From: an uncultured Alphaproteobacteria bacterium
Lineage (GTDB): Bacteria > Pseudomonadota > Alphaproteobacteria > RF32 > CAG-239
Direction of reading: 5' to 3'
Length of the DNA: 64,000 bases
NCBI GenBank assembly: GCA_944391715.1
Contig: CALXUP010000005.1
Span: 4,277 to 68,276, forward strand
A program made the translations under genes and the position numbers. Below, piece after piece: positions 18,468 through 56,425 of the stretch; positions within the stretch are counted from its first letter, which is position 1, and each line of letters opens with the position of its first letter. A model generated the notes under the pieces. It made no database searches. It was not told the DNA's origin and saw only the letters and a list, made by a program, of their open reading frames with translations.

Positions 18468-18482
18468 TCTGCTGCCCCCTGA

Positions 18483-20609
18483 CTAAATCTGGCCGACGGT
18501 TTTTATTTTGGCTTTAGGATAAATTTCATTTTGAGACATTACAACCGTCAACGGGCGGAAACGCTCGATAATCGAACGGACAAAAGGCCGGATATTCGGA
18601 CTGGTCAGCAAAACGGCCGTTTCGCCTTTTATGGCCAAATCTTCCAATGTGTTACGGACTTTGGCAATAAAGGCCTGCAAAGCCGACGGCGCCATGGCCA
18701 ACTGGCGGTCATCGCCTTCACCGACAATTGATTCGGCAAAAGCCTGCTCCCATTCCGCCGATAAAGTTACCAGCGGGATAATGCCAAACTCATTGGTATT
18801 GGCATTTGACAACTGGCGGGACAAACGGGTGCGGACGTGCTCGGTAATCAGCATCAGGCTGCGGGTTGAGGATACGGCCTCGGAAATGCCTTCCAAAATG
18901 GTCGGCAAATCGCGGATGGAAACGCGCTCCTGCAACAGGTTTTGCAAAATTCTTTGAACGGCGCCGAGGCTGATTTTGCTCGGGATAAGCTCTTTGACGA
19001 GTTTTTGCTGTTCCTTGTCCATTTCATCAAGCAGTTTCTGGGTTTCGGCATAGGAAAGCAGTTCAGGCATATTGTCTTTGACCAGTTCGGTAATGTGCGT
19101 GGTTACAACCGTTGCCGGATCAACCACGGTATAGCCGCGGAACATGGCTTCTTCGCGATAAGACTGGTCAATCCACATGGCTTTCAATCCAAATGTCGGT
19201 TCGGTTGTTGCCTCGCCGGGCAGCGTTATCGGCTCGCCGCGCGGATCCATAACCAGCAGCTGGGTCGGACGCAGTTCGCCTTTGCCGGATTTGACTTCTT
19301 TGATGTAAATATTATATTCGTTGGCCTCAAGCTGCATATTATCCTGAATGCGGATAGACGGCATAATAAAGCCAAGCTCGGAAGCCAGCGAACGGCGCAG
19401 CGCTTTAATCTGGTCGGTTAATTTTTTATTAGTCTGCTCGTTAATCAGCGGCAACAAACCATACCCGATTTCCAAGCGAATCAGATCCATCCGCAAAGCC
19501 GTTGCAATCGGTTCGTCGGCAGCTTTGGCGACTTTTCCCTGCTTTTGTTCTTCTTCAAACACTTCCTGCGCTCTGGCCTGAGCGGCTTTTTGCTGCTTGT
19601 CCAGATAATAAGCACTGGCACCGGTTAATATGGACAACAAGACAAACGGGATAGCCGGCGTTCCGGGCAGCATTCCCAAAGCAAGAGCCAGAAAGGCGCT
19701 CATTCCCAGGGCTTTCGGATAGTTACTGACCTGTTCAAACAAGACCTTATCCGTCGAATCGGTCATACCGGCTTTGGAAACAAGAATACCGGCCGCAACG
19801 GAAATAATTAATGCCGGAACCTGGCTGACCAGACCATCACCGACCGTCAGGCGGGTATAAGTTTCGCCGGCAGCCTTAAAGGTCATATCATTTTGAACCA
19901 TTCCGATAATGATACCGGCGACAATATTAATGAACGTAATAATCAAGCCGGCAATGGCGTCTCCGCGGACAAACTTGGAAGCACCATCCATAGCTCCGTA
20001 GAAAGAGCTTTCTTTTGACAAATCTTCCCGGCGGGCACGCGCTTCGTCTTCCGTTATCAGACCGGAAGACAAATCTGCGTCAATTGCCATTTGTTTTCCG
20101 GGCATGGCATCCAAAGCAAAACGGGCGGCAACCTCGGCAATACGGCCGGAACCTTTGGTAATGACCACAAAGTTGACCAATACCAAAATGGCAAAGACGA
20201 TTACGCCGATAACAAAATTGTTACCCATAATAAAGCCGCCGAAAGCTTTAATCACCTGACCGGCAGCATCCGGCCCCATATAGCCGTCCGACAAAATCAG
20301 GCGCGTCGAGGCCAGGTTCAGCGACAGACGGTATAAGGTCGTAATCAGCAAGACCAGAGGGAAAGCGCTGAACTGGTTTGGTTTCTCAATAAAAATCGCC
20401 GTCATCAGCACCAGGCAGGAAACCGTGATGGAAAAAGCCAAAGCGATATCCAACAGCCAGGCCGGCATCGGCATAATCAAAATTACCAGCATTAAAATGA
20501 TGGACAACGCAAAGAAAATGTCACCGCGTTTGGTGGACGAAACCAAAAGGTCTTTAAAAGATTTGCCTCCAAATACCGAGGCGCCGATATGTTGCGGATT
20601 CTTGGCCAT
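18483..20609 (-). CDS. flhA: Flagellar export apparatus protein FlhA
   Basis: 708 aa; eight N-terminal TM segments; conserved FHIPEP motif region and cytoplasmic domain. Confidence 0.9.
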   Translation of the reverse strand: MAKNPQHIGASVFGGKSFKDLLVSSTKRGDIFFALSIILMLVILIMPMPAWLLDIALAFSITVSCLVLMTAIFIEKPNQFSAFPLVLLITTLYRLSLNLASTRLILSDGYMGPDAAGQVIKAFGGFIMGNNFVIGVIVFAILVLVNFVVITKGSGRIAEVAARFALDAMPGKQMAIDADLSSGLITEDEARARREDLSKESSFYGAMDGASKFVRGDAIAGLIITFINIVAGIIIGMVQNDMTFKAAGETYTRLTVGDGLVSQVPALIISVAAGILVSKAGMTDSTDKVLFEQVSNYPKALGMSAFLALALGMLPGTPAIPFVLLSILTGASAYYLDKQQKAAQARAQEVFEEEQKQGKVAKAADEPIATALRMDLIRLEIGYGLLPLINEQTNKKLTDQIKALRRSLASELGFIMPSIRIQDNMQLEANEYNIYIKEVKSGKGELRPTQLLVMDPRGEPITLPGEATTEPTFGLKAMWIDQSYREEAMFRGYTVVDPATVVTTHITELVKDNMPELLSYAETQKLLDEMDKEQQKLVKELIPSKISLGAVQRILQNLLQERVSIRDLPTILEGISEAVSSTRSLMLITEHVRTRLSRQLSNANTNEFGIIPLVTLSAEWEQAFAESIVGEGDDRQLAMAPSALQAFIAKVRNTLEDLAIKGETAVLLTSPNIRPFVRSIIERFRPLTVVMSQNEIYPKAKIKTVGQI

Positions 20610-20622
20610 TTTCAGTTACACA

Positions 20623-21972
20623 TTATCCCATTGAGGCCGGCGGTACCTGATAGCCGGCTTCTTCATATTGCTTTAGTTTGTTGCGCAGCGTCCGGATGGA
20701 GATGCCCAGAATATTGGCTGCCTGCGTCCGGTTGCCGAAAGTGTGTTTCAGCGTATCGATAATCAGCTCCCGTTCCGCTCCGGCAACCGTCTTGCCGTAC
20801 AGGGGAGTCTCTTCCGGTTTTGCTCCTCCCGACATTGCCGGAAGATTGACATCAAAGTTGATGACGGCGTTCGGATCGGTCAAAACTATCGCCTCTTCCC
20901 CAATCTCATCGCCGGCTGCAAGCAAAACGGCGCGGTGCATGGTATTTTCAAGCTCGCGGACATTGCCCGGCCAGAGATAGTTCAACAGTTTTTCTTCGGC
21001 CTCTCTGGAAATATCCCGCATCGGAACGTCGTTTAACTCGGAATATTTTTTTACAAAGTGTTTGGCCAGAACGGGAATATCGCCGGGGCGGTCTTTCAAA
21101 GCCGGGATGTTAATGTTTACAACGTTCAGGCGAAAATAAAGATCCTGCCGGAATGTTCCGTTTTTGACGGCCTCATCCAGATTGCGGTTTGAGGTTGCAA
21201 TAATGCGGGTATTGATTTTTATCGGAGATTTGCCGCCGATACGGTCAATCTCTTTTTCCTGAATGGCACGCAGCAGTTTGGCCTGAATCCGGATATCCAT
21301 TTCCGAGATTTCATCCAGCAGCAGCGTGCCGTCGGTGGCTTCTTCAAACTTGCCGATACGACGGGAAACCGCGCCGGTAAAAGCTCCCTTTTCATAACCG
21401 AAAAGCTCGGATTCCAGCAGGGTTTCCGGGATAGCCGCGCAGTTGACGGCCACAAATTTTTTATTGGCACGTTTGGAATTGTCATGAATAAAGCGGGAGA
21501 AAACCTCTTTACCGGTTCCGGACTCTCCTGTTAACAAAACACTGGCTTCCGACGGAGCAATCTGTTTGGCCATTTTCAAAACGGCCTCGGTTTTTTTGTC
21601 GCCGTAAATCAGGGCATGATTTTCCCGCGTGGCAGCGGCCAAAACCGCCCCAATCAGTTCAGGATCAGGCGGCAGCGGAATATATTCTTTGGCGCCGGCT
21701 TTGATTGCCTTGACGGCAAGCGAGGTATCGTTGGCAACACCGCAGGCAACCACCAAGACGTTTATCCTTTCGCTTTCCAGCGAGCGGATAAATTTGTGGA
21801 TGTCCAGTTTGACATCTATCATTACCAGTTCAATATTCTTGGTGCCCGAACGCAGAATCTCCAGCGCCGTCTCAATCTTATCGGCCAGCGACACTTTTCC
21901 GCCCTGGCTGATGGCAATTTTACTGGCAGCCCCAATCTGTCCGTCTAATGTGCCGACAATTAAAAGTTCCAT
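20623..21972 (-). CDS. flbD: Sigma-54-dependent flagellar transcriptional activator (FlbD/FleQ-like)
   Basis: Degenerate receiver domain; AAA+ sigma-54 interaction domain (GESGTGKE, GAFTGA); C-terminal Fis-type HTH. Confidence 0.75.
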   Translation of the reverse strand: MELLIVGTLDGQIGAASKIAISQGGKVSLADKIETALEILRSGTKNIELVMIDVKLDIHKFIRSLESERINVLVVACGVANDTSLAVKAIKAGAKEYIPLPPDPELIGAVLAAATRENHALIYGDKKTEAVLKMAKQIAPSEASVLLTGESGTGKEVFSRFIHDNSKRANKKFVAVNCAAIPETLLESELFGYEKGAFTGAVSRRIGKFEEATDGTLLLDEISEMDIRIQAKLLRAIQEKEIDRIGGKSPIKINTRIIATSNRNLDEAVKNGTFRQDLYFRLNVVNINIPALKDRPGDIPVLAKHFVKKYSELNDVPMRDISREAEEKLLNYLWPGNVRELENTMHRAVLLAAGDEIGEEAIVLTDPNAVINFDVNLPAMSGGAKPEETPLYGKTVAGAERELIIDTLKHTFGNRTQAANILGISIRTLRNKLKQYEEAGYQVPPASMG

Positions 21973-21989
21973 TTCCCCTCTTTTGACTT

Positions 21990-22343
21990 TTATTTATTTA
22001 CCGTCTTGACAATTTCCGTCATCGTAATCCCCAATTTGTCATCCACCACGACCACTTCTCCGCGGGCAACCAGATTGTTGTTGACATAAATGTCTATCGC
22101 CTCGCCGACTTTGCGATCCAGCTCGATAATCGTTCCTTTGCTCAGTTTCATCAGCTGACTGACTTTCATCTGGGCTTTTCCCAAAATGGCAGAAACTTTT
22201 ACCGGAATCTCATAAACTGCTTCCAAATCGCTGGTGGAGCCCGGAATATCAAAATCCGTCTCATTGCTGCCGGCTTTCAAAATCGGGTCGTCGCCGATGA
22301 TTGAACTCTCGTTTATCTCGTCTAATTTCAAATCTTCGCTCAT
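21990..22343 (-). CDS. fliN: Flagellar motor switch protein FliN
   Basis: C-terminal SpoA/FliN domain GEAIDIYVNNNLVARGEVVVVDDKLGITMTEIV. Confidence 0.8.
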   Translation of the reverse strand: MSEDLKLDEINESSIIGDDPILKAGSNETDFDIPGSTSDLEAVYEIPVKVSAILGKAQMKVSQLMKLSKGTIIELDRKVGEAIDIYVNNNLVARGEVVVVDDKLGITMTEIVKTVNK

Positions 22344-22388
22344 TTAAGCCCTTTCTTTTATATAAGCCGCTTTTTCCTAAATTTAAGC

Positions 22389-23117
22389 TTAGTTTTTAGC
22401 GGCGTTTTCTTCAAGCAAATTGTCAACTTTTTCCAATAGTTTGTTGCTCAAATGCTCAACACCGCCGTTTTCCCATTCTATGCGGCAATCTGCCTTGGAC
22501 AAACTCTCGTCTTTATGCAATGCGATTTTTCCTTCAAAATCGTGGAGATGCGCCAATTTGGCAATCTGCTCCTGCACCTGTCCGATAACTTCGGGGTTCA
22601 GATAAAAAGACAATTTGGCCTCTCCGCTGAAATTGGCAAAATTGTCGGCAATAAACTTGTTGACAATCTCTACGCACTGTTCTTCCAGCAAATTGGGCAG
22701 AAGTTTTTTGAACACGGCCCGGTTCAACGCCAGATATTGCGCTTCAACCTGTTTTTGAACCTCTGCGGCATTGACGACAAGGTTCATCAATTTGGCATCT
22801 ATATTGCCCAACAAATCGGCAATCTGCCGTTCCGAACTTTCCTGCGCCTCAGCCTGCCCTTTTGCATAGCCTTTCTGTTCTGCCGAGGAAACCGCGGCAT
22901 CCAACTCGTCCTGCGTATAGGTTTGCACAGGAGGTTCAACCGGTTCGGGGGCGGTAACGGATTCTTCTGCCGACGGCTCCAAAACTTCTTCTCCGGAATC
23001 GTCTTCCGCCGTTTTTTCTTCTTCCTCCGGCTCCGGTTCCGTTTTTTTGATAATTTCGTTCTCGTCAACGATTATGAAATTATCAAACATAAATTTCTTA
23101 AAATCCCCCATCAGCAA
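22389..23117 (-). CDS. flbE: FlbE/FliH-like acidic flagellar assembly protein
   Basis: Glu/Pro-rich N-terminus and FliH-like C-terminus; sits between fliG and fliN as in the Caulobacter fliF operon. Confidence 0.5.
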   Translation of the reverse strand: MLMGDFKKFMFDNFIIVDENEIIKKTEPEPEEEEKTAEDDSGEEVLEPSAEESVTAPEPVEPPVQTYTQDELDAAVSSAEQKGYAKGQAEAQESSERQIADLLGNIDAKLMNLVVNAAEVQKQVEAQYLALNRAVFKKLLPNLLEEQCVEIVNKFIADNFANFSGEAKLSFYLNPEVIGQVQEQIAKLAHLHDFEGKIALHKDESLSKADCRIEWENGGVEHLSNKLLEKVDNLLEENAAKN

Positions 23118-23126
23118 AACCTAAAA

Positions 23127-24149
23127 CTAATAAATAAGTTCATCGTTGTCTTTGCCTTCGCTGATGACAATTTCGCCATTGTTAGACAGCTCTTTGGTCG
23201 TGGCCACAACATACTGCTGGGCTTCTTCCACATCACGCAGACGGACAGGCCCCATAGCCTCCATATCTTCTTTGATGATTTTGCCGGCACGCGAAGACAT
23301 ATTGTTGAAGAACAGCTCCTTGATTTGCTCGGACGCGCCTTTCAAAGCAATTGCCAGCTTGTCTTTGTCAATATTGCGCAGCAAAATCTGAATTCCTTGC
23401 GCATCGACGCGGATAAGGTCTTCAAACGTAAACATCAAAGACTTGACGCGTTCCGCACTCTCGCGGTTGCGCTCTTCCAAAGCCTCCATAAAGCGGCTTT
23501 CGGTATTGCGGTCCAAAGAGTTGAAAATATCGGCAATAAGCTCATGCGAATCGCGACGGGTAGATTTGGAAAGATTGCTCATAAACTCTTTGCGCAGGGT
23601 TTTTTCCAAACCGTCCAAAACTTCTTTTTGTACCGAATCCATCCGCAGCATACGCATAACGATTTCCATCGCAAAATTTTCCGGCAGCAGTGCAATTACT
23701 TTTGCCGCGTGTTCCGCCTTGATTTTTGACAAGATGACGGCAATCGTCTGCGGATATTCGTTCTTTAAATAATTGGCCAAAACATGCTCATTGACATTGC
23801 CGAGCTTGTCCCACATCGTGCGTCCGGCCGGGCCGCGGATTTCTTCCATAATCACAGATACGCGGTCTTTATCCAGAGCCTTGGACAACAGTCTTTCCGT
23901 ACTTTCATAAGTTCCGATTAAGGTGCCGGTGTTCGACAGCTTATCGGCAAACTCCTGAAAAAGCTGCTCTACCACCGTGGAATTGACTTTGCCAAGCGAG
24001 GCCATAATGACGGAAAGTTCTTTGATTTCTTCATCGTCCATCATAGAAAACAACGAAGCCGAGCGTTCTTCATCCAAAGAAAGCATCAATATCGCCGCTT
24101 TCTGCTGGCCGGAAATCAGATTATAATCGTCTATTACATTTTGTTTCAT
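23127..24149 (-). CDS. fliG: Flagellar motor switch protein FliG
   Basis: 340 aa; conserved FliG middle and C-terminal domains; follows fliF. Confidence 0.85.
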   Translation of the reverse strand: MKQNVIDDYNLISGQQKAAILMLSLDEERSASLFSMMDDEEIKELSVIMASLGKVNSTVVEQLFQEFADKLSNTGTLIGTYESTERLLSKALDKDRVSVIMEEIRGPAGRTMWDKLGNVNEHVLANYLKNEYPQTIAVILSKIKAEHAAKVIALLPENFAMEIVMRMLRMDSVQKEVLDGLEKTLRKEFMSNLSKSTRRDSHELIADIFNSLDRNTESRFMEALEERNRESAERVKSLMFTFEDLIRVDAQGIQILLRNIDKDKLAIALKGASEQIKELFFNNMSSRAGKIIKEDMEAMGPVRLRDVEEAQQYVVATTKELSNNGEIVISEGKDNDELIY

Positions 24150-24166
24150 TGCATTCTTCCCGTCGT

Positions 24167-25786
24167 TTAGTTCTCATTCTGATACAGCCAGCCTCTGACA
24201 ACATTGACGGCAGCATCCGGATTTTTATCGACAAGTTCGTTAATCCGCTTGATTGAGGCGGCCTTAACCCGTCCGTCAACCTTGTTCATTGTTACCAGTT
24301 CGTCAAGATCAGAATCTTCATTATTCAGGAAATTAGACAACAGCAGGTTTTCCTCCTCGTTTTCGCCCAAGAGCCGCTGCGTCGTATTGTTGGTATCGAA
24401 AGCGTTGTTTATCAGCGGTCTGATAACCAGTAAGATAACCAGTACTGCCACGATTGCAACCCCCAGACCTTCGGCGATACGCATCAGTTCTTCTTTGGTA
24501 AAGCCCATAATCAGGATTTCTTCTTCGCTGACAACTTCCGGCGCTATTTCAACAAATTTCAGGTTTTCGACCTCGACGATATCGCCGCGGTTAGCATCAT
24601 AACCGACTGCCGATTTGACCAAAGCGCTCAACTGTTCCATTTCTTCTGCCGTACGGTCGCGATAGACTGTTTTGCCGTCAGCGCCTTTCTCATAAACGCC
24701 GTCGACCATAACCGCAACACTTAAGCGTTTGACCACGCCGGCATTTCTGACCTTGTTGCGGACGACTTTGGATATTTCATAGTTGATTGTTTCTTCCACC
24801 CGGGAATTCTGGCTGAGATTGTTGGCATTATCAACCACATTGTCGCCGTTCGGGATATTTTGTGCAACGGTTACCGGCGCCTCTCCCTCTCGCGACAAGC
24901 CTTCTTCCGTTACCGAACTTTGCGAACGGACAACCTGGCTGTCAGGGTCATAAACCTCCTCATTGGTAACGACCTTGTCCATATCCATTTCGATATTGAC
25001 TTGTGCGCGTACTTTGCCGGGGCCGACGGTTTTTTCCAGCAAATTCTGTACGGACATTGCCAGTTTACGTTCCTGCTCCATACGCATCATTTCAATATTG
25101 GCATGCTGCAGCGTTTCTTCATCATCATAATTATTGGTCAGCAAATTGCCGGCACTATCCACAATCGCCACATTTTTAACATCCAGTTTCGGCACGGCGG
25201 CGGCAACCAGTTTTTGAATCGACTGAATATTTTTCAAATCCAAAGAGCCGTGCACTGTTTTGATAACAACAGAGGCAGACGGCGCCTGTTCTTCACGAGA
25301 GAACATTTCTCTTTTAGGCAAAACAAGATGCACCCTGGCGCTTTTGATGTTGTCAACCGAACGAATCGTTCTGGCAAGTTCGCCTTCCAAAGCACGAATC
25401 AGATTAACGTTCTGCACAAAATTGGTGGAACCGAGTGCGTCGGTATTGTCAAATATCTCATAGCCGACGTTTGAACCTTTTGACGCCATTGCCAGTTCTG
25501 CCGTATCAACGCGCATTTTGTTTACCAAATCTTTCGGCACCTGAACTTCCGTGCCGTTTTTGGTCAGTTTATATTTGACATTGGCGGCCTCCAGCCGGGT
25601 AACAATCTGTTTGGCATCTTCCAATTCCAAATCCGTATATAAAACGGCATATTCCGTTGCGCTTACCTGTGTGGCAATGTAGGCAAAAAAACTAATCAAA
25701 AAGATAATAATCGCAGAAATTGACACCAAACGTCCCGGCGACAAATTCTTTATGCTTTGCAAAAAATTATTCACTAGATTCCCCAA
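24167..25786 (-). CDS. fliF: Flagellar MS-ring protein FliF
   Basis: 539 aa; N- and C-proximal TM helices flanking a periplasmic ring domain. Confidence 0.85.
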   Translation of the reverse strand: MGNLVNNFLQSIKNLSPGRLVSISAIIIFLISFFAYIATQVSATEYAVLYTDLELEDAKQIVTRLEAANVKYKLTKNGTEVQVPKDLVNKMRVDTAELAMASKGSNVGYEIFDNTDALGSTNFVQNVNLIRALEGELARTIRSVDNIKSARVHLVLPKREMFSREEQAPSASVVIKTVHGSLDLKNIQSIQKLVAAAVPKLDVKNVAIVDSAGNLLTNNYDDEETLQHANIEMMRMEQERKLAMSVQNLLEKTVGPGKVRAQVNIEMDMDKVVTNEEVYDPDSQVVRSQSSVTEEGLSREGEAPVTVAQNIPNGDNVVDNANNLSQNSRVEETINYEISKVVRNKVRNAGVVKRLSVAVMVDGVYEKGADGKTVYRDRTAEEMEQLSALVKSAVGYDANRGDIVEVENLKFVEIAPEVVSEEEILIMGFTKEELMRIAEGLGVAIVAVLVILLVIRPLINNAFDTNNTTQRLLGENEEENLLLSNFLNNEDSDLDELVTMNKVDGRVKAASIKRINELVDKNPDAAVNVVRGWLYQNEN

Positions 25787-26074
25787 TCTACTAAATTATG
25801 AATAAATATATTCCCCTGCGTTTATAATTAATCCAATTTTATCTTTTTGAAATTATTATTTTAAGCTATCCACAGGCGGTGGCTTGTGCAGTCGGTTGTC
25901 AACACCACATTACAGAGGCCGTTGCCCAATATCCATGGAGATTATTTTATGCACGCCTTGGATTCCTGCGGCGTTCCGGCTGGATTTGTGAATGACGTAA
26001 AAATATCACCTTTTTCGAACCGGGTTTAAGAATCTGCCTTGATAATTCTGCTACTGTAACAACTCCGGAAATTT

Positions 26075-26776
26075 TCAGGCTTCATCATTGTCCAAAGATT
26101 TGTCAATCGAATAACCGGTAGCGCGGACTGTTCGGATATAGTCCGGGCCGAAATCGTTTAAGGATTTGCGCAGGCGGCGGATATGCACGTCTACCGTCCG
26201 GGATTCCACATAAACGTTATCGCCCCAGACGGTTTTGAGCAGGTACTCTCTGGAAAAGACTTTTCCCGGCACTTCCATCAGCGTTTTTAACAAACGAAAT
26301 TCGGTCGGCCCGAGGTGAATGTAATTCTCTCCGCGGAAAACTTTTTTCTCGGTCAAATCCATCCGGATATCTTCATACACCAGTTCTTTTTCCTGATGCG
26401 GTTCCGGTGCCCGGCGCAGGTTGGTTTTGACGCGCGCCATCAGTTCCGGAATGGAAAACGGTTTGGTAACATAGTCATCCGCACCGGCTGAAAGGCCTTT
26501 GATTTTGTCTTCTTCTTCGCCTTTGGCTGTGAGCATAATTATCGGAATGTTTTTGATTTCAGGGTTGCTGCGAATCAGTTTGCAGATTTCAACACCGGAA
26601 ATTTCCGGCAGCATCCAATCCAGCAGTATCAGAGACGGACGGACTTTTTCTACCGCCGCCAGAGCTTTGTTGCCGCGGGCTTCATGCACAACATCATAGC
26701 CTTCTTTCTGCAAGTTATATTTCAGCATCAAGGCCAAAGATTCTTCATCTTCTATCAGCATTACGGTATATTTCAT
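26075..26776 (-). CDS. phoB: Phosphate regulon response regulator PhoB (OmpR family)
   Basis: Receiver domain (LILLDWMLPEISG, MLTAKGEEEDKIKGLSAGADDYVTKPFS) closely resembling PhoB; winged-helix C-terminus. Confidence 0.8.
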   Translation of the reverse strand: MKYTVMLIEDEESLALMLKYNLQKEGYDVVHEARGNKALAAVEKVRPSLILLDWMLPEISGVEICKLIRSNPEIKNIPIIMLTAKGEEEDKIKGLSAGADDYVTKPFSIPELMARVKTNLRRAPEPHQEKELVYEDIRMDLTEKKVFRGENYIHLGPTEFRLLKTLMEVPGKVFSREYLLKTVWGDNVYVESRTVDVHIRRLRKSLNDFGPDYIRTVRATGYSIDKSLDNDEA

Positions 26777-26827
26777 TACATTTCTCCTTCCCGTCCTGCC
26801 GAAAAGTTTAAGGCAATCGGGTTAAAA

Positions 26828-27463
26828 TTACCTTAAAGCCTCAATATTACGGGCATATTCCCCGCCGGCAAAGACAGATGTTCCTGCCACCAGGATATCG
26901 GCTCCGGCACTGATGCAGCGGGCTGCCGTCAGCGGGTTTATGCCGCCGTCAACTTCGATTTCTATTTCGCGGCTGCCGCGCATTTCCTTTATCCGGGAGA
27001 TTTTTTGCAGGCTGTTTTCAATAAATTTCTGCCCGCCGAAACCGGGATTGACCGACATTACCAACACCAAGTCAAGTTTATCGAGCACATATTCCAACAC
27101 ATCTTCCGGTGTGGCCGGGTTGAGCGAAACGCCGGCTTTTACCCCGTAGGAGCGGATTGTGGCCAATGTCTTGTCCAGATGGCGGCAGGCCTCGGCATGA
27201 ACCGTAATGATATCAGCTCCGGCAGCGATAAACCATGGTATCATCTCGTCCGGGGTATTTACCATTAAATGAACATCAAAGCAAAGTTTGCTTTTGGGGC
27301 GCAAAGCTTTGACAATTCCGGGACCAAAAGTGAGGTTCGGCACAAAACTGCCGTCCATAACGTCAAGGTGGATTATATCGGCACCGGCTTTTTCCAATGC
27401 GGCAACCTCTTCACCCAGGCGGCTGAAATCGGCAGACAAGATACTGGGGGCTATCTTAACCAT
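26828..27463 (-). CDS. rpe: Ribulose-phosphate 3-epimerase
   Basis: Start [13 protein letters not shown]; catalytic H/D motifs HLDVMDG, HLMV. Confidence 0.85.
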
Positions 27464-48891: not shown

Positions 48892-49089
48892 TTACTCAGC
48901 TGCAACATCCATTGCATCAAATTTTACGGCTTTGCTTTCGCAGAAGCATACACGGGAGTAAAACTCAGATTTTTTGCCCTTATTGAACTCGGAAACCGGA
49001 CGGTGATAACCCATTACTCTGGTCCAGATTTCGCAGGGTTGTCTTTCTTCATCGCTTAATTTTACATCTTCAAAATTAACAGTATTCAT
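48892..49089 (-). CDS. Stand-alone glycyl-radical domain protein, corresponding to the NrdD C-terminus
   Basis: MNTVNFEDVKLSDEERQPCEIWTRVMGYHRPVSEFNKGKKSEFYSRV... carries the RVxGY glycyl-radical fingerprint; GGAG RBS 7 nt upstream of the ATG at 49089; nrdD stops 32 nt upstream. Confidence 0.6.
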   Translation of the reverse strand: MNTVNFEDVKLSDEERQPCEIWTRVMGYHRPVSEFNKGKKSEFYSRVCFCESKAVKFDAMDVAAE

Positions 49090-49120
49090 TTCTTTCTCCA
49101 TTTGTTGATTGAATTTTACT

Positions 49121-51196
49121 CTATGCAACTTCTTTTCTGGAAGCTGCGGCTCTTCTTTTTTCTGCCTTTTTCTCTTCATCACAGATCGGGCAATATTTAT
49201 GTTCACCGGAAATGTAGCCGTGTTTCGGACAAATCGAGAACGTCGGCGTAATGGTGACATAAGGCAGTCGGTAGTTGGTCAGAACGCGGCGAACAATGTC
49301 GCGGCAGACCTTGGCTGATGAAACTCTTTGACCCATGTACAGGTGAAGTACCGTACCGCCGGTGTATTTGGTTTGCAGTTTTTCCTGCAACTCCAAAGCC
49401 TCGAACGGGTCATCAGTGTAGTTAACCGGCAGCTGGGACGAGTTGGTATAATACGGATTTTCTTCTGTCCCGGCTTGCAGGATTCCTTTAAATCTCTTCT
49501 TGTCTTCGCGGGCAAAACGGTAAGTCGCACTTTCGGCAGGCGTGGCTTCCAGATTATACATATGCCCGGTTTCTTCCTGAATTTTTACCATTCTGTCGCG
49601 GATATGATTCAGGAATCTTTCGGCGAAATCTTGGCCCCATTCATCTGCAACATTGTGCTCGTCATTGGTAAAGTTGCGAATCATCTCGTTAATGCCGTTA
49701 ACACCGAAAGTCGAGAAGTGGTTGCGCAAGGTGCCGAGATAACGTTTGGTATACGGGAACAAGCCGTTGTCAATGAGTCTTTGAATAACTTTGCGTTTGA
49801 TTTCCAGAGAAGTTTTGGCCAGTTCCAGCAACTCGTCAACGCGGTTCAACAAGCCATGCTCGTCGCCTTTGTAAAGGTATCCCAAACGGGCGCAGTTAAT
49901 GGTAACAACGCCGATTGACCCCGTTTGCTCGGCAGAACCGAACAAGCCGTTGCCTTTGGCCAGAAGCTCGCGCAGGTCAAGCTGCAGGCGGCAGCACATT
50001 GAGCGAATCTGCCCCGGTTTTAAGACGGAATTGATAAAGTTCTGGAAATAAGGCAGGCCGTATTTGGCTGTCATTTCAAACAAGAGCTCAGTATTTTCAT
50101 CTTCCCAAGGAAAATCAGGAGTCATATTGTAAGTCGGAATCGGGAAGGTGAACGGACGGCCTTTGATATCGCCTTTCATCATAACCGAAATATATGCTTT
50201 GTTAATCATATGCATTTCTTCGGTCAGATCTCCATAAGTGAAGTCTTGCTCAACACCGGCAATCATCGGATGTTTGTCGCGCAGGTCTTCCGGGCATACC
50301 CAGTCAAACGTAAAGTTGGTAAACGGTGTTTGAGAACCCCAGCGGGACGGAACATTCAGGTTATAAATCAGTTCCTGGAAAGACTGCTCAACCTGCTCAT
50401 AAGTCAAATGGTCTACGCGGACATACGGTGCAAGATATGTGTCTACGGAAGAAAATGCCTGAGCGCCGGCCCATTCGTTTTGCAGAGTGCCCATAAAGTT
50501 GACCATCTGGCCGACAGCGGCAGACAGGTGTTTGGCCGGACCGGCTTCCGCTTTACCCGGAACACCGTTAAAGCCTTCATGCAACAGGTTTTTCAACGAC
50601 CAACCGGCACAATAAGCGGCCAACATATCCAAATCGTGAATATGAAAATCGCCGTTGCGGTGTGCTTCACCGACAGCCGCCGGATAAACATGGCTCAGCC
50701 AGTAGTTGGCCGTAACCTTGCCGGAAACGTTCAAAATCAATCCACCGTTAGAGTATCCCTGGTTGGCATTGGCGTTAACGCGCCAGTCCAGTTTTTCCAG
50801 ATATTCATTGATGGAGCTTTCAACATCAACCATGACCTTTTTATCAGAACGCATACGGTTGCGCTGGTCACGGTATAAAATATAAGCTTTGGCTGTTGCA
50901 AAATAGTTGGCAGAGATCAGAACCTGCTCGACAATATCCTGAATTTGTTCAATGGAAGGAAGAGACTCCGTAAACTTATGCTTCATAACCTTTAAGACCT
51001 GAGCAGTCAAAAGCCAGCTTTCCTCTTCGCCGAACTCGCCCGTCGTCGTACCGGCTTTGTTTATAGCGTTAAAAATTCTGGTGTTGTCAAACGGGGCTAA
51101 GGTACCATCTCTTTTAGTAACACTGTCAAAAGGGATGTTCTCGGCAATTTTGCTCTGAGAAATTTCGTTATCGTTCACGGACATATCTTCGCTCAT
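49121..51196 (-). CDS. nrdD: Anaerobic ribonucleoside-triphosphate reductase (class III) large polypeptide, lacking the glycyl-radical C-terminus
   Basis: ATP-cone N-terminus (VTKRDGTLAPFDNTRI), class III core, C-terminal Cys-rich Zn-ribbon (CPKHGYISGEHKYCPIC) then stop; start taken at MSEDMSVNDNE (51196) because the track ORF's N-terminus runs through non-coding-looking NrdR boxes. Confidence 0.85.
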   Translation of the reverse strand: MSEDMSVNDNEISQSKIAENIPFDSVTKRDGTLAPFDNTRIFNAINKAGTTTGEFGEEESWLLTAQVLKVMKHKFTESLPSIEQIQDIVEQVLISANYFATAKAYILYRDQRNRMRSDKKVMVDVESSINEYLEKLDWRVNANANQGYSNGGLILNVSGKVTANYWLSHVYPAAVGEAHRNGDFHIHDLDMLAAYCAGWSLKNLLHEGFNGVPGKAEAGPAKHLSAAVGQMVNFMGTLQNEWAGAQAFSSVDTYLAPYVRVDHLTYEQVEQSFQELIYNLNVPSRWGSQTPFTNFTFDWVCPEDLRDKHPMIAGVEQDFTYGDLTEEMHMINKAYISVMMKGDIKGRPFTFPIPTYNMTPDFPWEDENTELLFEMTAKYGLPYFQNFINSVLKPGQIRSMCCRLQLDLRELLAKGNGLFGSAEQTGSIGVVTINCARLGYLYKGDEHGLLNRVDELLELAKTSLEIKRKVIQRLIDNGLFPYTKRYLGTLRNHFSTFGVNGINEMIRNFTNDEHNVADEWGQDFAERFLNHIRDRMVKIQEETGHMYNLEATPAESATYRFAREDKKRFKGILQAGTEENPYYTNSSQLPVNYTDDPFEALELQEKLQTKYTGGTVLHLYMGQRVSSAKVCRDIVRRVLTNYRLPYVTITPTFSICPKHGYISGEHKYCPICDEEKKAEKRRAAASRKEVA

Positions 51197-51256
51197 TCCT
51201 TCGTTATTATTAGTTATAAAAAACAAAATTGTTTGTGTTATCACCTGATAACAAGC

Positions 51257-51306
51257 ATACAATATATAGTATTAACAAAATGTAAATAAGACTAGATATA
51301 GTATGC
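51257..51306. promoter_or_regulatory. Two NrdR-box-like 16-mers spaced 32 bp, upstream of nrdD
   Basis: atacaatatatagtat (51257-51272) and agactagatatagtat (51289-51304) each match the NrdR consensus acacwatatatwgtgt at 13/16; 32-bp centre-to-centre spacing is typical. Confidence 0.45.
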
Positions 51307-52117
51307 ACAGAAAAATTTTTTATTTCAAAATTCTTAACGCGTATCATCTTGAATATGCTGATATTCTGAGCGAAATATATGATGCAAACAAGGGCAAAAA
51401 AATTCTTTTTCCGGCTTGACATTGCTATCTTGCTATAATTCCACCAAAAAAAAATTTTTTTAATAGTGGATAAAAAGATTAACCTTTCTTAACAAAAAAA
51501 ATATCATTATTTTTCAACGTTATAGATTCTTGACGTAATCAACATATTTGTACACAAGGGGCACAAAAAAAGCTTAAATTTACAAAAAACATTTTCGGTT
51601 TCAGAAGCATCCTCACAAGATATTGTGTTTTATATGGATTCGAAATACAGAATCAGGAAAAGGACTCGGTCTTTTGGTAAAAAGAAGCAAAATTTTTGAG
51701 AATCGATTGGTGTTTTTTCCTTATCTCTAAAATTCACTTTTTATTTATTATTCTTTTTCTTATTTCTTGTTTTTTATAATTTATTTTTATTGTTACTTTT
51801 TGGGTGCAAAGAAGCTTTTTCTTACTTTTGCTTGACCAAAAGTAAGCAAAAGTCAATCCCAACCTCATTTTCTAAGCTTTCAGCCCAAAGTTAAAGTCGC
51901 TACGCTCCAATGCTCTGTACTTCACTATTACCCCTTTGGGCCAAAAGCTAAGAAATCATTCGGTAATCGGGCTGGTCAACTCCCCCGCCCCTCAGGCTTG
52001 AGGGGAGAGGGGCTTCACTTTCGGTTTTTGCTCCAAAACCTAAGCTATTCGCAAAGGGCACCCAATCGTGCCGGATGAGGGATTGTGCATTAAAGTTTTG
52101 TCATTCTCGGGCTTTCT

Positions 52118-52527
52118 TTTCTTATGTCATTGCCGGACTTGACCTGCACGGCAGGCGCGCGGCAAGTTGACAGCACTGTGCCACAGAGGCCGCGTTGCTA
52201 TGGCGGGGTCTGTGAATGGCGTTGTACTTTGAAGGGTGGATTCCTGGTATCTTTTTCTTACGTCATTGCCGGGCTTGACCCGGCAATCCACGTTAATAAA
52301 TTAGCCTTATTGTTGATCTGGATCCCCGGGGCGGTGCCCGGGGATGACATAATAAAAAACACAGCTCGGGGATGACGAGAAAAAAACACGACCTGGGGAT
52401 GACTATAAAAAAGAGAGTCCGGCAATGACCGGTGCGACCGGTGGCGCTCAATCGGTAACATTGTGCCCTGAGGATCGCGTTGCTCCTGCGGGATTTGTGA
52501 CGAGCATTGTGCTTTGAAGTTACTGCC
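52118..52527. repeat. Duplicated MITE-like unit (A at 52118-52247, B at 52257-52527) with shared ends and short inverted termini
   Basis: Both units start ttcttaYgtcattgccggRcttgacc and end in related about 60-nt segments (gaggNNcgcgttgct...ctttgaag); unit B carries an extra about 155 bp bounded by gtcattgccgg / ccggcaatgac inverted repeats. Confidence 0.5.
52340..52420. repeat. Three tandem 26-28-nt direct repeats (ggggatgac-N-A-rich)
   Basis: ggggatgacataataaaaaacacagctc / ggggatgacgagaaaaaaacacgacct / ggggatgactataaaaaagagagtcc, preceded by palindrome tccccggg gcggtg cccgggga. Confidence 0.55.
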
Positions 52528-52595
52528 AAGAATAGTCTTTAGCATCGATGAGTTTTCTTTCTACCACCTAGACTATTCTCCTTAAAAATCAACAT

Positions 52596-52625
52596 GAAAA
52601 AAAGCACTCCGGAGAGTGCTTTTTT
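52596..52625. terminator. Hairpin terminator of the TolC-like lipoprotein gene (bidirectional)
   Basis: aaaaaaagcactc cgga gagtgcttttttt. Confidence 0.55.
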
Positions 52626-52628
52626 TGT

Positions 52629-54530
52629 TTAGTACCGCGGACGGGTTTCTATTTCTTTGCCGATTTCACCATTGGCAATGTAATCATCCGCACAATTTGT
52701 TCCGCGGCAGCGTTTCAGCACCGTAGCATTCCGGCCTTTGGTCAAACCTCTGACCTGCATTGACGGTACATAGACTTCATCGACAATAATCTTAAACGTA
52801 ATATAATTAACATTGCCGTACTCATCTATAATATAGACCTTCACATGATAGGTTCCGCCGTCTTTCGGCATCGGCGTTCCGTAGAACGTCATTGTTTTTT
52901 CATCAAAGGTCAGCCAATCCGGCAGCGGGCTGTCATCTATCAAGCCGGCTTTGAACGTCAGATTACCGCGGGCATTGAGATCTTTCAGAGCATCTTCCGG
53001 AATGCTATAGAGATAATCTTGTCCGGTTTCCAGTTTTTGGTCAGGAACATCTTCCGTCGACAAATTAACCGGCGGGCGTTTAGACGGCACGTTCAACAGA
53101 TACGGGCGGTTGTCCGGCAGGAAATCGCCATCGCGCCATTTTTCCAGCGTTGTATGCAGATAGACGGCGATTTTAGACGGTTTTTCTCCCAGCATATAAT
53201 AAGGCAGCGCATCAAGCCCCAGCGCAGCATAAAGGTTTCCGAGCGAGGCCTGAAGTTCGATATAAGCCTTGGAAGCTTTGACCTCGTCGGCAATGGCGCG
53301 GGCAGCCTCGAGCAAAGATTTCGAATCGTGACTACCCAGTTTTACCGTAATATCTTCGGCAATGTCTTCCGATACATTGGCGATTTCAATATTAATCTGA
53401 TAATCTTCCATCGCCGACATATAAGCAGCCCAACCGACATACAGTTGGCTTAAAACCAGGTTGGTCATCCGCTGGCGGCGCAAGGCTTCCAGCTCGCCGG
53501 TCCGGGGGTTTTTGACATCTTCAAAAACATGATAGCCGATTTCCTGAGCTTTGCGGCTCCAGACTTTATTATAATAAGCCGGATTGCTTTGATAATCGTT
53601 TTGCGTGGTTGACTTGAACTCCTGAATGGTAAACTCCAGGTTCTCGTCAATATTCACCATATCACGCATTTTGAGTTCCGGGCGGTTGGTCAGAGCCAGC
53701 CATTCCATATCGGCCAGCGGCGTGCGGATATCCGGCAGGGCAAAATTGCCGTACAACTTGCCGACCAGTTTGTATTCCGTTGCCGGATGAAAACCCATTA
53801 AGGCGGCCAGTTTGGTTTCGGCCGTTTCCATTCCGCGTTTTAACTCGGACAAGTTTTTAACGGCTTCCATATATTCGCGCTTTAACACCAATTTATCTGT
53901 CGGCAGATACTGATTTAATTTTGCAAGGTCTTTGGCCTGAGCATTCAGCTCGTCAACCTCCAGCGTCAAGACCTCTATCATATCATCAATCACCGGCAGC
54001 AGACGCTGTGCCGTCAGAGCCTGCCAATAAAGCACGCGGGTTTCCTGCAGCAGATTGTGAATAACCTTGCGGCTCTGCTCAAAAGCCAGATTTTTGCGGT
54101 ATTCCTGGTCGACGGTCTGATAATAAACCGTGCTCATATCCAAAAGGTTCCAGGCCAGTCGGAGCTCGGAATTGGCATCGGACAGGGAATCGGTGCTCAG
54201 GTAGCCGGCCTGCCCCATAATCTCGGGAATCTGGTTGACCGGAGATTTTCCGGCCTTTATCAAACTTTCTTCATAACTGACAACGCGGCGGGTGAAGTTA
54301 TATTTCAAGGCCAGCGCCATTGTCATATACATATCTATCGGCTTTGAAATTTTGCGCGGCTGGTTCAAATACATATTCTGCATATCCACATCGGCGCGGA
54401 TTGCGCTGTCCCAATCGGAATAAGTCGCCGATGATACGGTTGTTTCGCTGACGGAATATTCTTCTTCGCGCGGGCCGCAGGAAACAACAAAAAACATGCC
54501 CAAAACCAAACATGCCAATATTTTTTTCAT
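52629..54530 (-). CDS. Outer-membrane-factor (TolC/NodT)-like lipoprotein with a C-terminal Ig-like (putative He_PIG/cadherin-like) domain
   Basis: Lipobox FVVSCG; two OEP-like repeats (LAWNLLD..., VLYWQALTAQ...); C-terminal DDSPLPDWLTFDEKTMTFYGTP motif; no adjacent ABC or MFP genes. Confidence 0.6.
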   Translation of the reverse strand: MKKILACLVLGMFFVVSCGPREEEYSVSETTVSSATYSDWDSAIRADVDMQNMYLNQPRKISKPIDMYMTMALALKYNFTRRVVSYEESLIKAGKSPVNQIPEIMGQAGYLSTDSLSDANSELRLAWNLLDMSTVYYQTVDQEYRKNLAFEQSRKVIHNLLQETRVLYWQALTAQRLLPVIDDMIEVLTLEVDELNAQAKDLAKLNQYLPTDKLVLKREYMEAVKNLSELKRGMETAETKLAALMGFHPATEYKLVGKLYGNFALPDIRTPLADMEWLALTNRPELKMRDMVNIDENLEFTIQEFKSTTQNDYQSNPAYYNKVWSRKAQEIGYHVFEDVKNPRTGELEALRRQRMTNLVLSQLYVGWAAYMSAMEDYQINIEIANVSEDIAEDITVKLGSHDSKSLLEAARAIADEVKASKAYIELQASLGNLYAALGLDALPYYMLGEKPSKIAVYLHTTLEKWRDGDFLPDNRPYLLNVPSKRPPVNLSTEDVPDQKLETGQDYLYSIPEDALKDLNARGNLTFKAGLIDDSPLPDWLTFDEKTMTFYGTPMPKDGGTYHVKVYIIDEYGNVNYITFKIIVDEVYVPSMQVRGLTKGRNATVLKRCRGTNCADDYIANGEIGKEIETRPRY

Positions 54531-54671: not shown

Positions 54672-55451
54672 ATGTTTGACATTTTTTATACCGTTTTTAA
54701 GTTCAAAGAGAAGGAAAGCCCTGACAAACTCGGGCTTTATCCCGAACGCGCCCATACGCAGGCCATGCCGGAAAGACGCTATCTCTGGAGCTCCCGCATT
54801 TTGGTTATTCTGGCGGTTATGAGCATGAGCGTCACGATGATGCTGGCCCTTACGATTTATCTGATGCTGCCGCAAAAAACCGTTTATCCCCGTCTGCTGC
54901 AAATCAACCGGTATTTTTCCCAGCTGGAACTGGTGCAGCCGGCCGAACGCAGGATTTTGGTTACGGATCTGATTGCCGAACAGCATATTTCCGAATATAT
55001 TGCGCTGCGCAATTCCATTACGTCTGATTATGATCAGCTGCTCTCCCGCTGGGGTGAAAGGCAGACGATTTACTGGTATTCGGAGGCCAATGTATACAGC
55101 CGTTTTTATAATACCGACGTAAAATATAACCTGATACAATTTAAGAAAAATGCCCTGCAGCGCTATGTTAAAGTCGAATGGGTGCGGCCGTTGACGCTCG
55201 GCTTGTGGCAGGTGCAGTTTTTGACAATGGATATGACGCCGGATTCTGACAAGATTGATACCAAAATCTGGCGGGCAACGCTGCGTATTACTTATATGAA
55301 TCTGCCATTTAAGACCAAAGATGATGCAATGAAAAACCCGTTTGGATTTGTGGTAACCAATTATTCGCTCGGTTATGTCGGAACCCCGGAAACATCGCAA
55401 CACTATCTGCAACGGGCAAGAGAACTGGCCGAAAGCGGACAAGGGGCATAA
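54672..55451 (+). CDS. VirB8-family protein (type IV secretion inner-membrane component homologue), orphan
   Basis: N-terminal cytoplasmic segment, one TM (ILVILAVMSMSVTMMLAL), periplasmic domain ending ATLRITYMNLPFKTKDDAMKNPFGFVVTNY, which aligns to the VirB8 C-terminal NPxG region; own hairpin terminator at about 55438-55470. Confidence 0.65.
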   Translation: MFDIFYTVFKFKEKESPDKLGLYPERAHTQAMPERRYLWSSRILVILAVMSMSVTMMLALTIYLMLPQKTVYPRLLQINRYFSQLELVQPAERRILVTDLIAEQHISEYIALRNSITSDYDQLLSRWGERQTIYWYSEANVYSRFYNTDVKYNLIQFKKNALQRYVKVEWVRPLTLGLWQVQFLTMDMTPDSDKIDTKIWRATLRITYMNLPFKTKDDAMKNPFGFVVTNYSLGYVGTPETSQHYLQRARELAESGQGA

Positions 55452-55531
55452 AACAGCCCCTTTTGTTTTGGCGATTTCGCATAAAATTACAACACCTGAT
55501 GAAATTTACCCGGCAAGAAAGCAACGAAAGT

Positions 55532-55966
55532 ATGTCTGAGGCATTTAAGCGGGGATATATAACCCACAGAGATGAGGAAAGGCAAAAACTCGAACAAGCA
55601 CGCCAAAATGCACCGACATTAACCACGGTTTTTGAAGCGGTCGGCGCAATGGCTTCCCCTTTCGGGGCATCAAAACTTGCCAATGCACCATATCGAAATG
55701 TTGTAAAAAAAATTCCGTTGAAAAAAGCTGCAGCTTATGGTAGTTTTTATGGTGCAGGAACAACAGAACACGGAAATACTCTCGGAGAAACATTAGGAAA
55801 CTATGCCGAGAATATGAGTGTCGGGGCTGTATCCAGTAGTTTAGGTAATTCGATTGGGGGAAAATTTTTCGGCCGCAGTTATTTTCCCACATTAAGAAAA
55901 GGTTATGAACAATTTTCTGATACTAGTTTGAACCAATGTTACAATTATCTTAAAGATAAAAAATAG
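55532..55966 (+). CDS. Gly/Ser/Ala-rich small protein with an abrupt GC drop in its 3' half; bacteriocin/microcin-like or polymorphic-toxin C-terminal module (tentative)
   Basis: N-terminal about 50 aa at about 47% GC; from about 55687 onward about 35% GC with foreign codon choice (ggt, gga, tta); Gly-rich GAGTTEHGNTLGETLGNYAENMSVGAVSSSLGNSIGGKFFG; possible leader ...VFEAVGA; start uncertain (55463, 55499 or 55532). Confidence 0.45.
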   Translation: MSEAFKRGYITHRDEERQKLEQARQNAPTLTTVFEAVGAMASPFGASKLANAPYRNVVKKIPLKKAAAYGSFYGAGTTEHGNTLGETLGNYAENMSVGAVSSSLGNSIGGKFFGRSYFPTLRKGYEQFSDTSLNQCYNYLKDKK

Positions 55967-55983
55967 ATACCCCAGGACAAACA

Positions 55984-56295
55984 ATGCAAAATAAAAAAGA
56001 ATATTTATCCAGCTTATTGAAAGATATCATAATACTTATTTTTAAATGGTTTTTTGGTCTTTCATTAATCATTACAATTATTATTCAATTTCATGTCATT
56101 CCAAGTTTTGTAATGATAATATTTGATCTTCTTTTGGTAATTAACTTTATTATCAGAGAACATTTTTTTAATTTTCATAAAAAACTCAGAAATGATACTT
56201 ATCTTTTTTATATAAATATAATTTTGTCTTTCCTTATGATTATCATTTTTTATCAATATTGGGATATTGTAAAGCACTTCTTTATGGTAGAATAA
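55984..56295 (+). CDS. Very AT-rich (about 22% GC) 3-TM small membrane protein; candidate immunity protein
   Basis: 17 nt downstream of the Gly-rich gene; three hydrophobic helices; composition far from the genome average. Confidence 0.5.
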   Translation: MQNKKEYLSSLLKDIIILIFKWFFGLSLIITIIIQFHVIPSFVMIIFDLLLVINFIIREHFFNFHKKLRNDTYLFYINIILSFLMIIIFYQYWDIVKHFFMVE

Positions 56296-56425
56296 TCCGG
56301 ATTGCCGGGGAGTGATTAAAAAATATCCTAAAAAATATTGGTAAGATAAGGCAACTAAAAGGCAAGATTTCTCTTGTCTTTTAGCTTATAGCAATGTACC
56401 CTTTCTAAGGAAGAAAGGCAAAGCA

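Follow-up and report, generated by a model that had tools for sequence, protein, structure and literature searches.

A 64,000-nt stretch of contig CALXUP010000005.1 from an uncultured alphaproteobacterium (hereafter the window) carries two small adjacent genes on its + strand, which together probably represent an orphan cassette, now degenerate, from a polymorphic toxin system of uncultured gut Alphaproteobacteria, with an intact immunity gene retained. The first open reading frame (ORF) ends at 55966 and has three possible starts, a TTG at 55463 and two ATGs at 55499 and 55532. The best start is the ATG at 55532, which gives a product of 144 amino acids (aa). The ATG at 55499 has become ATA in two contigs otherwise identical to the window copy, and the TTG at 55463 is not a credible start, as it lies inside a terminator-like hairpin and untranslated region (UTR). 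After a spacer of 17 nt follows the second gene (55984..56295), encoding a 103-aa protein with three transmembrane (TM) helices. An original prediction, which described the pair as a Gly-rich small toxin with a linked immunity gene, had the coordinates, the gap and the 3-TM protein right.

The two genes differ in composition from their surroundings. Host genes in the window have a GC content of 0.46-0.48 and a GC content at third codon positions (GC3) of 0.51-0.56. Along the thirds of the 144-aa ORF, the GC content is 0.49, 0.38 and 0.34, and the GC3 falls from 0.42 to 0.19 and 0.27, against about 0.55 in the host. The 103-aa gene has a GC content of only 0.20 and a GC3 of 0.21, and 55941-56252 is the minimum-GC stretch of 312 nt across all 64 kb. 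Both the uneven GC profile and the placing of the lowest GC of the window at the 103-aa gene had been correctly predicted. With host codon usage and the same amino acids, a GC content of 0.50 would be expected for the middle third of the ORF and of 0.30 for the 103-aa gene. Because these values exceed the observed ones, the GC deficit is seated in codon choice and not in amino-acid content alone. A low GC3 (0.17-0.33) is common to all 15 cassette alleles examined, which makes it a trait of the cassette family and not the sign of one recent import.

The predicted Gly-richness holds for residues 70-115 of the 144-aa product (about 24% Gly), and not for the whole ORF, with just 10%. The product is basic (net charge +7) and contains small-xxx-small motifs and Gly/Ala/Ser-rich segments. 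Its exact look-up returned zero records, because single-residue variants exist.

A toxin fragment behind a deletion junction

The window ORF corresponds to the C-terminal ~150 residues of 313-347-aa proteins, encoded on metagenome contigs and metagenome-assembled genomes (MAGs) of gut Alphaproteobacteria. Searching the window by tblastn with nine of these proteins (P0001-P0009) revealed one copy, with homology starting at 55514-55520 and running from their residues ~165-196 onward. The 5'-truncated fragment proper spans 55524..55966 and matches residues ~175-322 of P0006 (alignment A1).

Two sister loci, L021 (MAG BRZ_BN__bin26) and L058, have the same backbone as the window. Their gene order is He_PIG lipoprotein, virB8-like gene, full-length toxin of the serum-amyloid-A-like (SAA) type, 109-aa TM gene, orphan of the Gly-rich domain (179-187 aa), 3-TM gene, 67-aa gene and pepF. 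The window matches L021 exactly, and L058 almost exactly, across the virB8-like gene (54672-55451), a terminator-like hairpin with T-run directly 3' of it (55441..55470; 7-bp stem with five GC pairs, then TTGTTTTGGC; also in L021) and 72 nt of UTR. In the sister loci, this 5' UTR remnant (55452..55523, identical to L021 4503-4574) lies between virB8 and the full-length toxin. Past 55523..55524 the window jumps, and the UTR (...CGGCAAGAAAGCA) is fused to ACGAAAGTATG..., that is, to toxin codon ~193. In L021, the UTR runs on through a promoter-like TTGACT box to the start of the toxin gene; the window has neither. Also lost are the N-terminal domain (N-domain) and ~45 residues from the beginning of the toxin domain, including the near-invariant G145, G149, D152, E153 and G156 (alignment A2) of the motif GLSxGWSDExEG.

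This arrangement is not limited to one assembly. The exact 103-aa protein is present in 109 index blocks, and its look-up gave seven contig contexts, six of which (L001-L006, independent metagenome contigs) are arranged like the window and carry the identical deletion junction. Across these six, the fragment has accumulated 2-5 substitutions, mostly non-synonymous, and the immunity gene none. The seventh context, L007, has the identical 103-aa gene preceded by a 312-aa protein, whose C-terminal part corresponds to the window ORF. The ORF is open in all seven copies. The window ORF is most likely an inactive remnant, and not a working toxin, because both the most conserved motif of the family and the promoter are absent.

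Upstream of the full-length toxins, at L021 4575-4717, L019 5850-6000 and L007 1-73, lies a common conserved region of ~150 nt with the TTGACT box, in which an inverted repeat, AAGGAATT...AATTCCTT, directly precedes the start codon. This region may be a common regulatory element, which is deleted in the window.

Full-length members and exchanged modules

A homologue search with the 312-aa protein of L007 retrieved the nine full-length relatives P0001-P0009, together with truncated forms. The other matches have only the first ~140-155 residues in common, followed by different C-termini. In full-length members, a Q/Y/G-rich linker of low complexity connects a lineage-specific N-domain (~150 aa) to a toxin module at the C-terminus. 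The window retains just the last ~150 residues of one of these modules, a domain of ~200 aa. The first ~50 aa of the window ORF, predicted to be a leader or a delivery domain, turn out to be the middle of this conserved domain, and the real delivery region, the N-domain with its linker, has been deleted.

The same N-domain is also joined to other modules. In P0011 it is followed by a Tlde1_dom (Pfam, 31 bits against a cut-off of 30.1 bits), in P0013 by a SAA-like C-terminus (51.7 bits), and in P0010, P0014 and P0018 by a third, unannotated C-terminus. For two further N-domain relatives, P0017 and P0019, the precomputed Pfam field gives PF10908. The SAA module (PF00277, 51.7 bits) ends the full-length toxins of L021 (4718-5953) and L058 (4170-5405), and is followed by the 109-aa multi-TM gene. 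The Tlde1-like and SAA-like modules each have their own small downstream gene. Because one N-domain is fused to the Gly-rich domain, a Tlde1_dom, a SAA module or an unannotated C-terminus, the family of the window ORF appears to be a polymorphic toxin family. The window copy itself comes without the N-domain. The proposed membership in a toxin/immunity system is supported by the shared N-domain with different C-termini, as well as by the immunity homologue after each allele.

The putative immunity gene

The 103-aa protein has three hydrophobic segments, and a structure model (predicted local distance difference test score, pLDDT, of 63) places helices at residues 2-35, 41-64 and 71-100. A homologous 3-TM protein is encoded directly after every toxin allele examined. 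In a comparison of 15 distinct pairs, alleles with more similar toxin tails (last 55 residues) also have more similar downstream proteins (r = 0.75 between the two identities, Mantel p = 2e-4), a co-variation partly expected from the linkage of adjacent genes alone. This places the 103-aa protein as a putative cognate immunity protein, which would have been retained when the toxin was lost.

A word-indexed search with the immunity protein found just four close homologue clusters, and a further homologue search with a diverse profile, over the best 8000 candidates, added little. Scans of Pfam, NCBIfam and PADLOC gave zero matches for the 103-aa protein.

In L007, the full-length toxin (74-1012) has a deletion and a frameshift near its 3' end, and a second truncated paralogue with a paralogous 3-TM gene comes after the 103-aa gene. 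Because the window-type copies are truncated and the L007 partner is frameshifted, none of the contigs seen carries an intact toxin cognate to this immunity allele.

At 55917..55945, still within the 3' end of the toxin fragment, is a sequence resembling a promoter (CTGATA-17-TACAAT, a TG standing ahead of the -10 box), from which the immunity gene could be transcribed alone. The evidence for it is weak, as the scan gave 10 sites against 6.4 +/- 2.6 in shuffled sequences.

Cassette structure and recombination

Sliding identity to other alleles divides the cassette into blocks. The first (55524..55615, SEAFKRGYITHRDEERQKLEQARQNAP) is highly conserved and common to full-length genes and most orphans; at 55526-55615, its nucleotide identity with every allele is 82-100%. 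It is a candidate homology arm for recombination. Identity to L021b and L007b falls after ~55615. The middle block (55616..55820) is 91-100% identical to L019a, a full-length allele from the dnaK locus, and to L007a. Beyond ~55820, just past GETLGNYAENM, identity to L019a sinks to 38-67%. There begins a hypervariable C-terminal tail of ~48 aa (55821..55966; columns 297-350 of alignment A1), which sets the allele type and has a pairwise identity of 24-82% between types. Tail and immunity gene are allele-specific, and similarity resumes at 56323..56396. This conserved 3' flank is 86-100% identical downstream of the immunity genes of L007b, L021b, L008, L010a and L017, though these immunity genes differ, and contains a 13-bp hairpin (56355-56384, -17.8 kcal/mol, z = -3.3).

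The C-terminal swapping with a linked immunity gene that had been predicted therefore does occur, as indicated by the allele breakpoints and the co-variation of the 15 pairs. The GC step at ~55687 is not the swap junction that it was taken for, and falls between the two breakpoints at ~55615 and ~55820.

About 300 nt of the cassette are 91-100% identical to full-length genes of the same species, located at the dnaK locus (L019, L057). Because of this common stretch, the cassette is probably able to recombine with full-length genes. Orphan arrays, in which a full-length gene and its immunity gene are followed by units of orphan and immunity gene, were found in L010, L018, L019 and L020, and L007 can be counted among them. 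Shorter toxin fragments of 86-137 aa take the same position in other arrays. Orphan cassettes with immunity genes and a conserved junction with full-length genes, as expected of polymorphic toxins, are thus present in L010, L018, L007, L019, L020, L021 and L058.

The toxin domain and its phage relatives

An exhaustive profile search yielded 123 representatives of the ~200-aa toxin domain, in two settings. In the first, the domain is C-terminal in proteins of 250-390 aa with many different short N-termini. Two of these, P0036 (1.3e-12) and P0073 (4.1e-13), have a Phage_Mu_F domain before it, and P0037 has a MuF fragment and a PG_binding_1 domain. MuF is a recognised trafficking module of polymorphic toxins (PMC5576092; PMC3482391). 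The distant member P0145 has a low-GC gene for a 132-aa multi-TM protein 3 nt downstream. In other organisms, a second class of short N-region, G..P[IV]KR..P..G.S.YYY.D, precedes the same domain (P0041, P0051, P0056, P0059 and P0074 in alignment A2), which suggests further classes of delivery domains.

In the second setting, the domain is N-terminal in proteins of 500-1200 aa that match phrog_5880. The profile of alignment A1 finds P0096, P0097 and P0121, all of them matching phrog_5880, and hhalign of A1 against the phage N-termini (alignment A6) gave a probability of 98.2% (E = 6e-14). The N-terminal domain of phrog_5880 and the toxin domain are accordingly homologous. In IMG/VR contigs, the phrog_5880 gene is located between the gene of a SLT internal-virion/DNA-ejection protein and the portal gene. 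P0006 on its own had zero PHROG matches at 0.01, and tblastn of P0006 and P0097 against GenBank phages gave no match; P0096 matched GenBank phages through its SLT domain only.

Genomic neighbourhood and export route

The Pfam context of the window from ~5 to 64 kb holds a flagellar cluster, RND/OEP efflux genes and one VirB8-like gene, and no core of a type I, IV, V, VI or VII secretion system. No C39 peptidase or ABC exporter is encoded within 10 kb of the pair. The VirB8-like protein (Pfam, 4.9e-22) has one N-terminal TM segment. No virB or virD gene besides it was found in the annotated parts of the window, so that the apparatus (VirB/VirD4) that should accompany a component or effector of a type IV secretion system (T4SS) is missing there. 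The suggested link of the pair to virB8 is not conserved, as full-length toxins also stand beside dnaK or other housekeeping genes, and with family loci lacking virB8 we rejected it as a dedicated partner.

The virB8-like gene forms a conserved pair with a divergent gene for a 633-aa lipoprotein with a C-terminal He_PIG Ig domain (52629-54530) in the window, L021 and L058, and no further T4SS genes are near this pair. The sole large secretion machine seen in the window is the flagellar export and basal-body cluster at ~14000-27000, with fliF, fliG, fliH, fliN, a sigma-54 activator, flhA, flhF and a ParA-like gene. A 351-aa protein with the Pfam domain T6SS_VgrG3-like_C is encoded at 11984-13039 (+), adjoining lexA, and no further type VI secretion genes were seen in the window.

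A gene-poor stretch of 1.3 kb separates nrdD from the He_PIG lipoprotein gene. It contains short repeats (51900-52600; two copies of GTCATTGCCGGxCTTGACC and three of GGGGATGAC) and, on either strand, ORF-like stretches rich in GC. Rfam has no family for 51900-52600, and the window overall, with a permissive scan of 51.2-52.7 kb, gave two tRNAs and otherwise chance-level hits only. The anaerobic ribonucleotide reductase gene nrdD itself (48892-51262, -) appears split. Its large ORF stops at 49121, and RVMGY, the glycyl-radical motif, is encoded by another ORF in an overlapping frame (48892-49260). The same split into 691 + 69 aa recurs in L001-L003, with 707 + 65 aa in L004.

Interpretation and alternatives

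A deletion joined the UTR downstream of virB8 to toxin codon ~193, by which the promoter, the N-domain and the GLSxGWSDExEG motif were lost. We propose that the remaining toxin fragment is inactive. The intact 3-TM gene would be the cognate immunity gene, kept for protection against neighbours that still deliver this type of toxin. Fragment and immunity gene together would form a silent cassette, and its recombination into full-length genes would swap the C-terminal tail and the immunity gene together. More speculatively, the intact toxin may act on or at the cytoplasmic membrane or envelope of the target cell, because all immunity alleles encode small polytopic membrane proteins and the phage homologues enter the host envelope.

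Several points weigh against this picture. The toxin domain had no match in profile searches of Pfam, NCBIfam, PADLOC and PDB, and contains no hydrophobic or TM-grade helix (maximum KD19 of 0.91-1.14). An AlphaFold2 model of full-length P0006, built from a 37-sequence alignment, is all-helical and of low confidence (pLDDT 44). As the domain thus offers neither a hydrophobic helix, nor a database match, nor a good model, membrane action is deduced from the immunity protein and the phage homology only. No secretion system was seen near any family locus examined, and the co-variation of tail and immunity gene is subject to the linkage mentioned above. Some residual activity of the fragment is conceivable too, because its ORF is still open in all seven copies.

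An intact ORF in seven independent copies would also suit an active, stand-alone small toxin of the bacteriocin or microcin type or a Gly-zipper pore former, with a leader or delivery region in the first ~50 aa of the 144-aa product and the 103-aa protein as its immunity. So would the small-xxx-small motifs, the net charge of +7 and the membrane immunity-type gene 17 nt downstream. Such a toxin is nevertheless improbable, considering that these first 50 aa come from the centre of a conserved domain, that the upstream junction is a deletion scar which removed the promoter, and that the near-invariant motif is gone. The absence of a C39 ABC exporter within 10 kb, and of matches to any Gly-zipper, bacteriocin or colicin Pfam model, points in the same direction, as do the still shorter fragments of 86-137 aa, which resemble silent cassettes at the same array position. 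Phage ancestry offers another explanation, in which the pair is prophage debris, composed of a fragment of an internal-virion or ejection protein and a membrane protein for superinfection exclusion, and not an interbacterial weapon. The homology to the N-terminus of phrog_5880, the Phage_Mu_F fusion in some proteins and the low GC3 of the cassette are in line with it. However, no phage gene lies near any alphaproteobacterial locus, the same N-domain bears Tlde1-like and SAA-like modules, each with a small downstream gene, and arrays of truncated C-termini with matching 3-TM genes are a signature of polymorphic toxins. Prophage debris therefore seems quite improbable to us.

We consider it very improbable that a T4SS-like apparatus, marked by the VirB8-like gene and the He_PIG lipoprotein, has the protein as its substrate or accessory. 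Although virB8 is directly upstream in the window, L021 and L058, and a full-length toxin follows it in L021 and L058, the annotated parts of the window contain no other virB/virD gene, a terminator-like hairpin separates virB8 from the cassette, and full-length toxins occur beside dnaK and other housekeeping genes without virB8. Known interbacterial effectors of T4SS, such as those with XVIPCD in Xanthomonas, carry C-terminal signals, and the conserved part of the present family is N-terminal.

A degenerate cassette with a retained immunity gene is the reading that we prefer. A bolder extension of it, which we regard as unlikely, though less so than the alternatives above, is that the ~200-aa domain constitutes a new toxin fold which attacks the envelope or membrane, and which bacteria took over from phage DNA-ejection proteins, or phages from bacteria. 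In these flagellated gut Alphaproteobacteria, it would be delivered by a route outside the known polymorphic-toxin pathways. Candidate routes would be a colicin-like release and uptake via the short disordered N-region, flagellar type III export, or a device involving the VirB8-like protein and the He_PIG lipoprotein.

The local feature is ordinary for loci of this kind; it is the family, the link to phage ejection and the export route that deserve follow-up. Two genes so far called hypothetical would receive a concrete function, and the invariant immunity gene beside a presumably dead toxin would illustrate immunity hoarding in gut communities. The comparison defines an unannotated candidate polymorphic toxin family in the poorly studied gut Alphaproteobacteria, present in human, mouse and ruminant metagenomes, with at least four types of toxin module and many immunity alleles. 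The homology between toxin module, MuF cargo and phage ejection protein also suggests a testable origin and mode of action for the uncharacterised phrog_5880 domain, which is common in environmental phages.

Comparison with known systems

With class II microcins and bacteriocins with double-glycine leaders, as which the pair had been read, it has in common only a small Gly-containing protein and an adjacent membrane protein. The window protein is too large, the supposed leader with its 'GA' site is internal to the conserved domain, and no C39 peptidase ABC exporter lies within 10 kb; we rejected this class. Pore-forming colicins are paired with immunity proteins of three to four TM segments (Cei/Cai), and the window pair resembles them in its small polytopic membrane protein encoded directly downstream. 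Similar features, including a Gly/Ala/Ser-rich small-xxx-small spacing, are found with the glycine-zipper toxins TelE (PMC10434224) and EsxX (PMC12744356), which belong to a membrane-depolarising class. Unlike all of these, the toxin domain has no hydrophobic hairpin and no colicin or Gly-zipper match in Pfam (no hit at E <= 1 for the window ORF, or at E <= 5 for the full-length protein of L007), which also speaks against the Gly-zipper pore former of the original prediction.

The MuF polymorphic toxins of temperate phages (Jamet et al. 2017, PMC5576092) are closer, since the same ~200-aa domain is a C-terminal module behind Phage_Mu_F in P0036, P0073 and P0037. The lineage of the window differs from them in its N-domain and in having its loci outside prophages; no MuF domain was found in the window ORF, the 312-aa protein of L007, P0010, P0011 or P0013. 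With phrog_5880, the toxin domain has the motifs QGL(S/T)xG(W/F)(S/A)DE, Y..RD..R..L....P and G..YG.G..E in common. The phage domain, however, stands at the N-terminus of proteins of 518-1119 aa, whose genes belong to the virion module and adjoin SLT/ejection and portal genes, whereas the domain of the present family is C-terminal and has an immunity gene linked to it.

The closest functional counterparts are the orphan toxin/immunity modules of contact-dependent growth inhibition (CDI; cdiA-CT/cdiI) and Rhs systems (Poole et al. 2011, in the account given by PMC5576092; Zhang et al. 2012, PMC3482391). There, too, C-terminal toxin fragments that lack a promoter and the 5' part of the gene are accompanied by immunity genes of their own. 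They are located behind a full-length gene or away from it, and a conserved stretch in common with it permits the joint swap of tail and immunity gene. The window family has neither the VENN or PxxxxDPxGL junction motif, nor CdiB, filamentous haemagglutinin (FHA) repeats, Rhs/YD repeats or VgrG/PAAR; its full-length proteins are just ~320 aa long, its toxin domain and N-domain are unannotated, and its immunity proteins are integral membrane proteins. Because these junction motifs, repeats and transporters are absent, the family is not a member of CDI or Rhs. To judge from its sequence, the pair would be the functional equivalent of a CDI/Rhs orphan module, built from a toxin family of its own.

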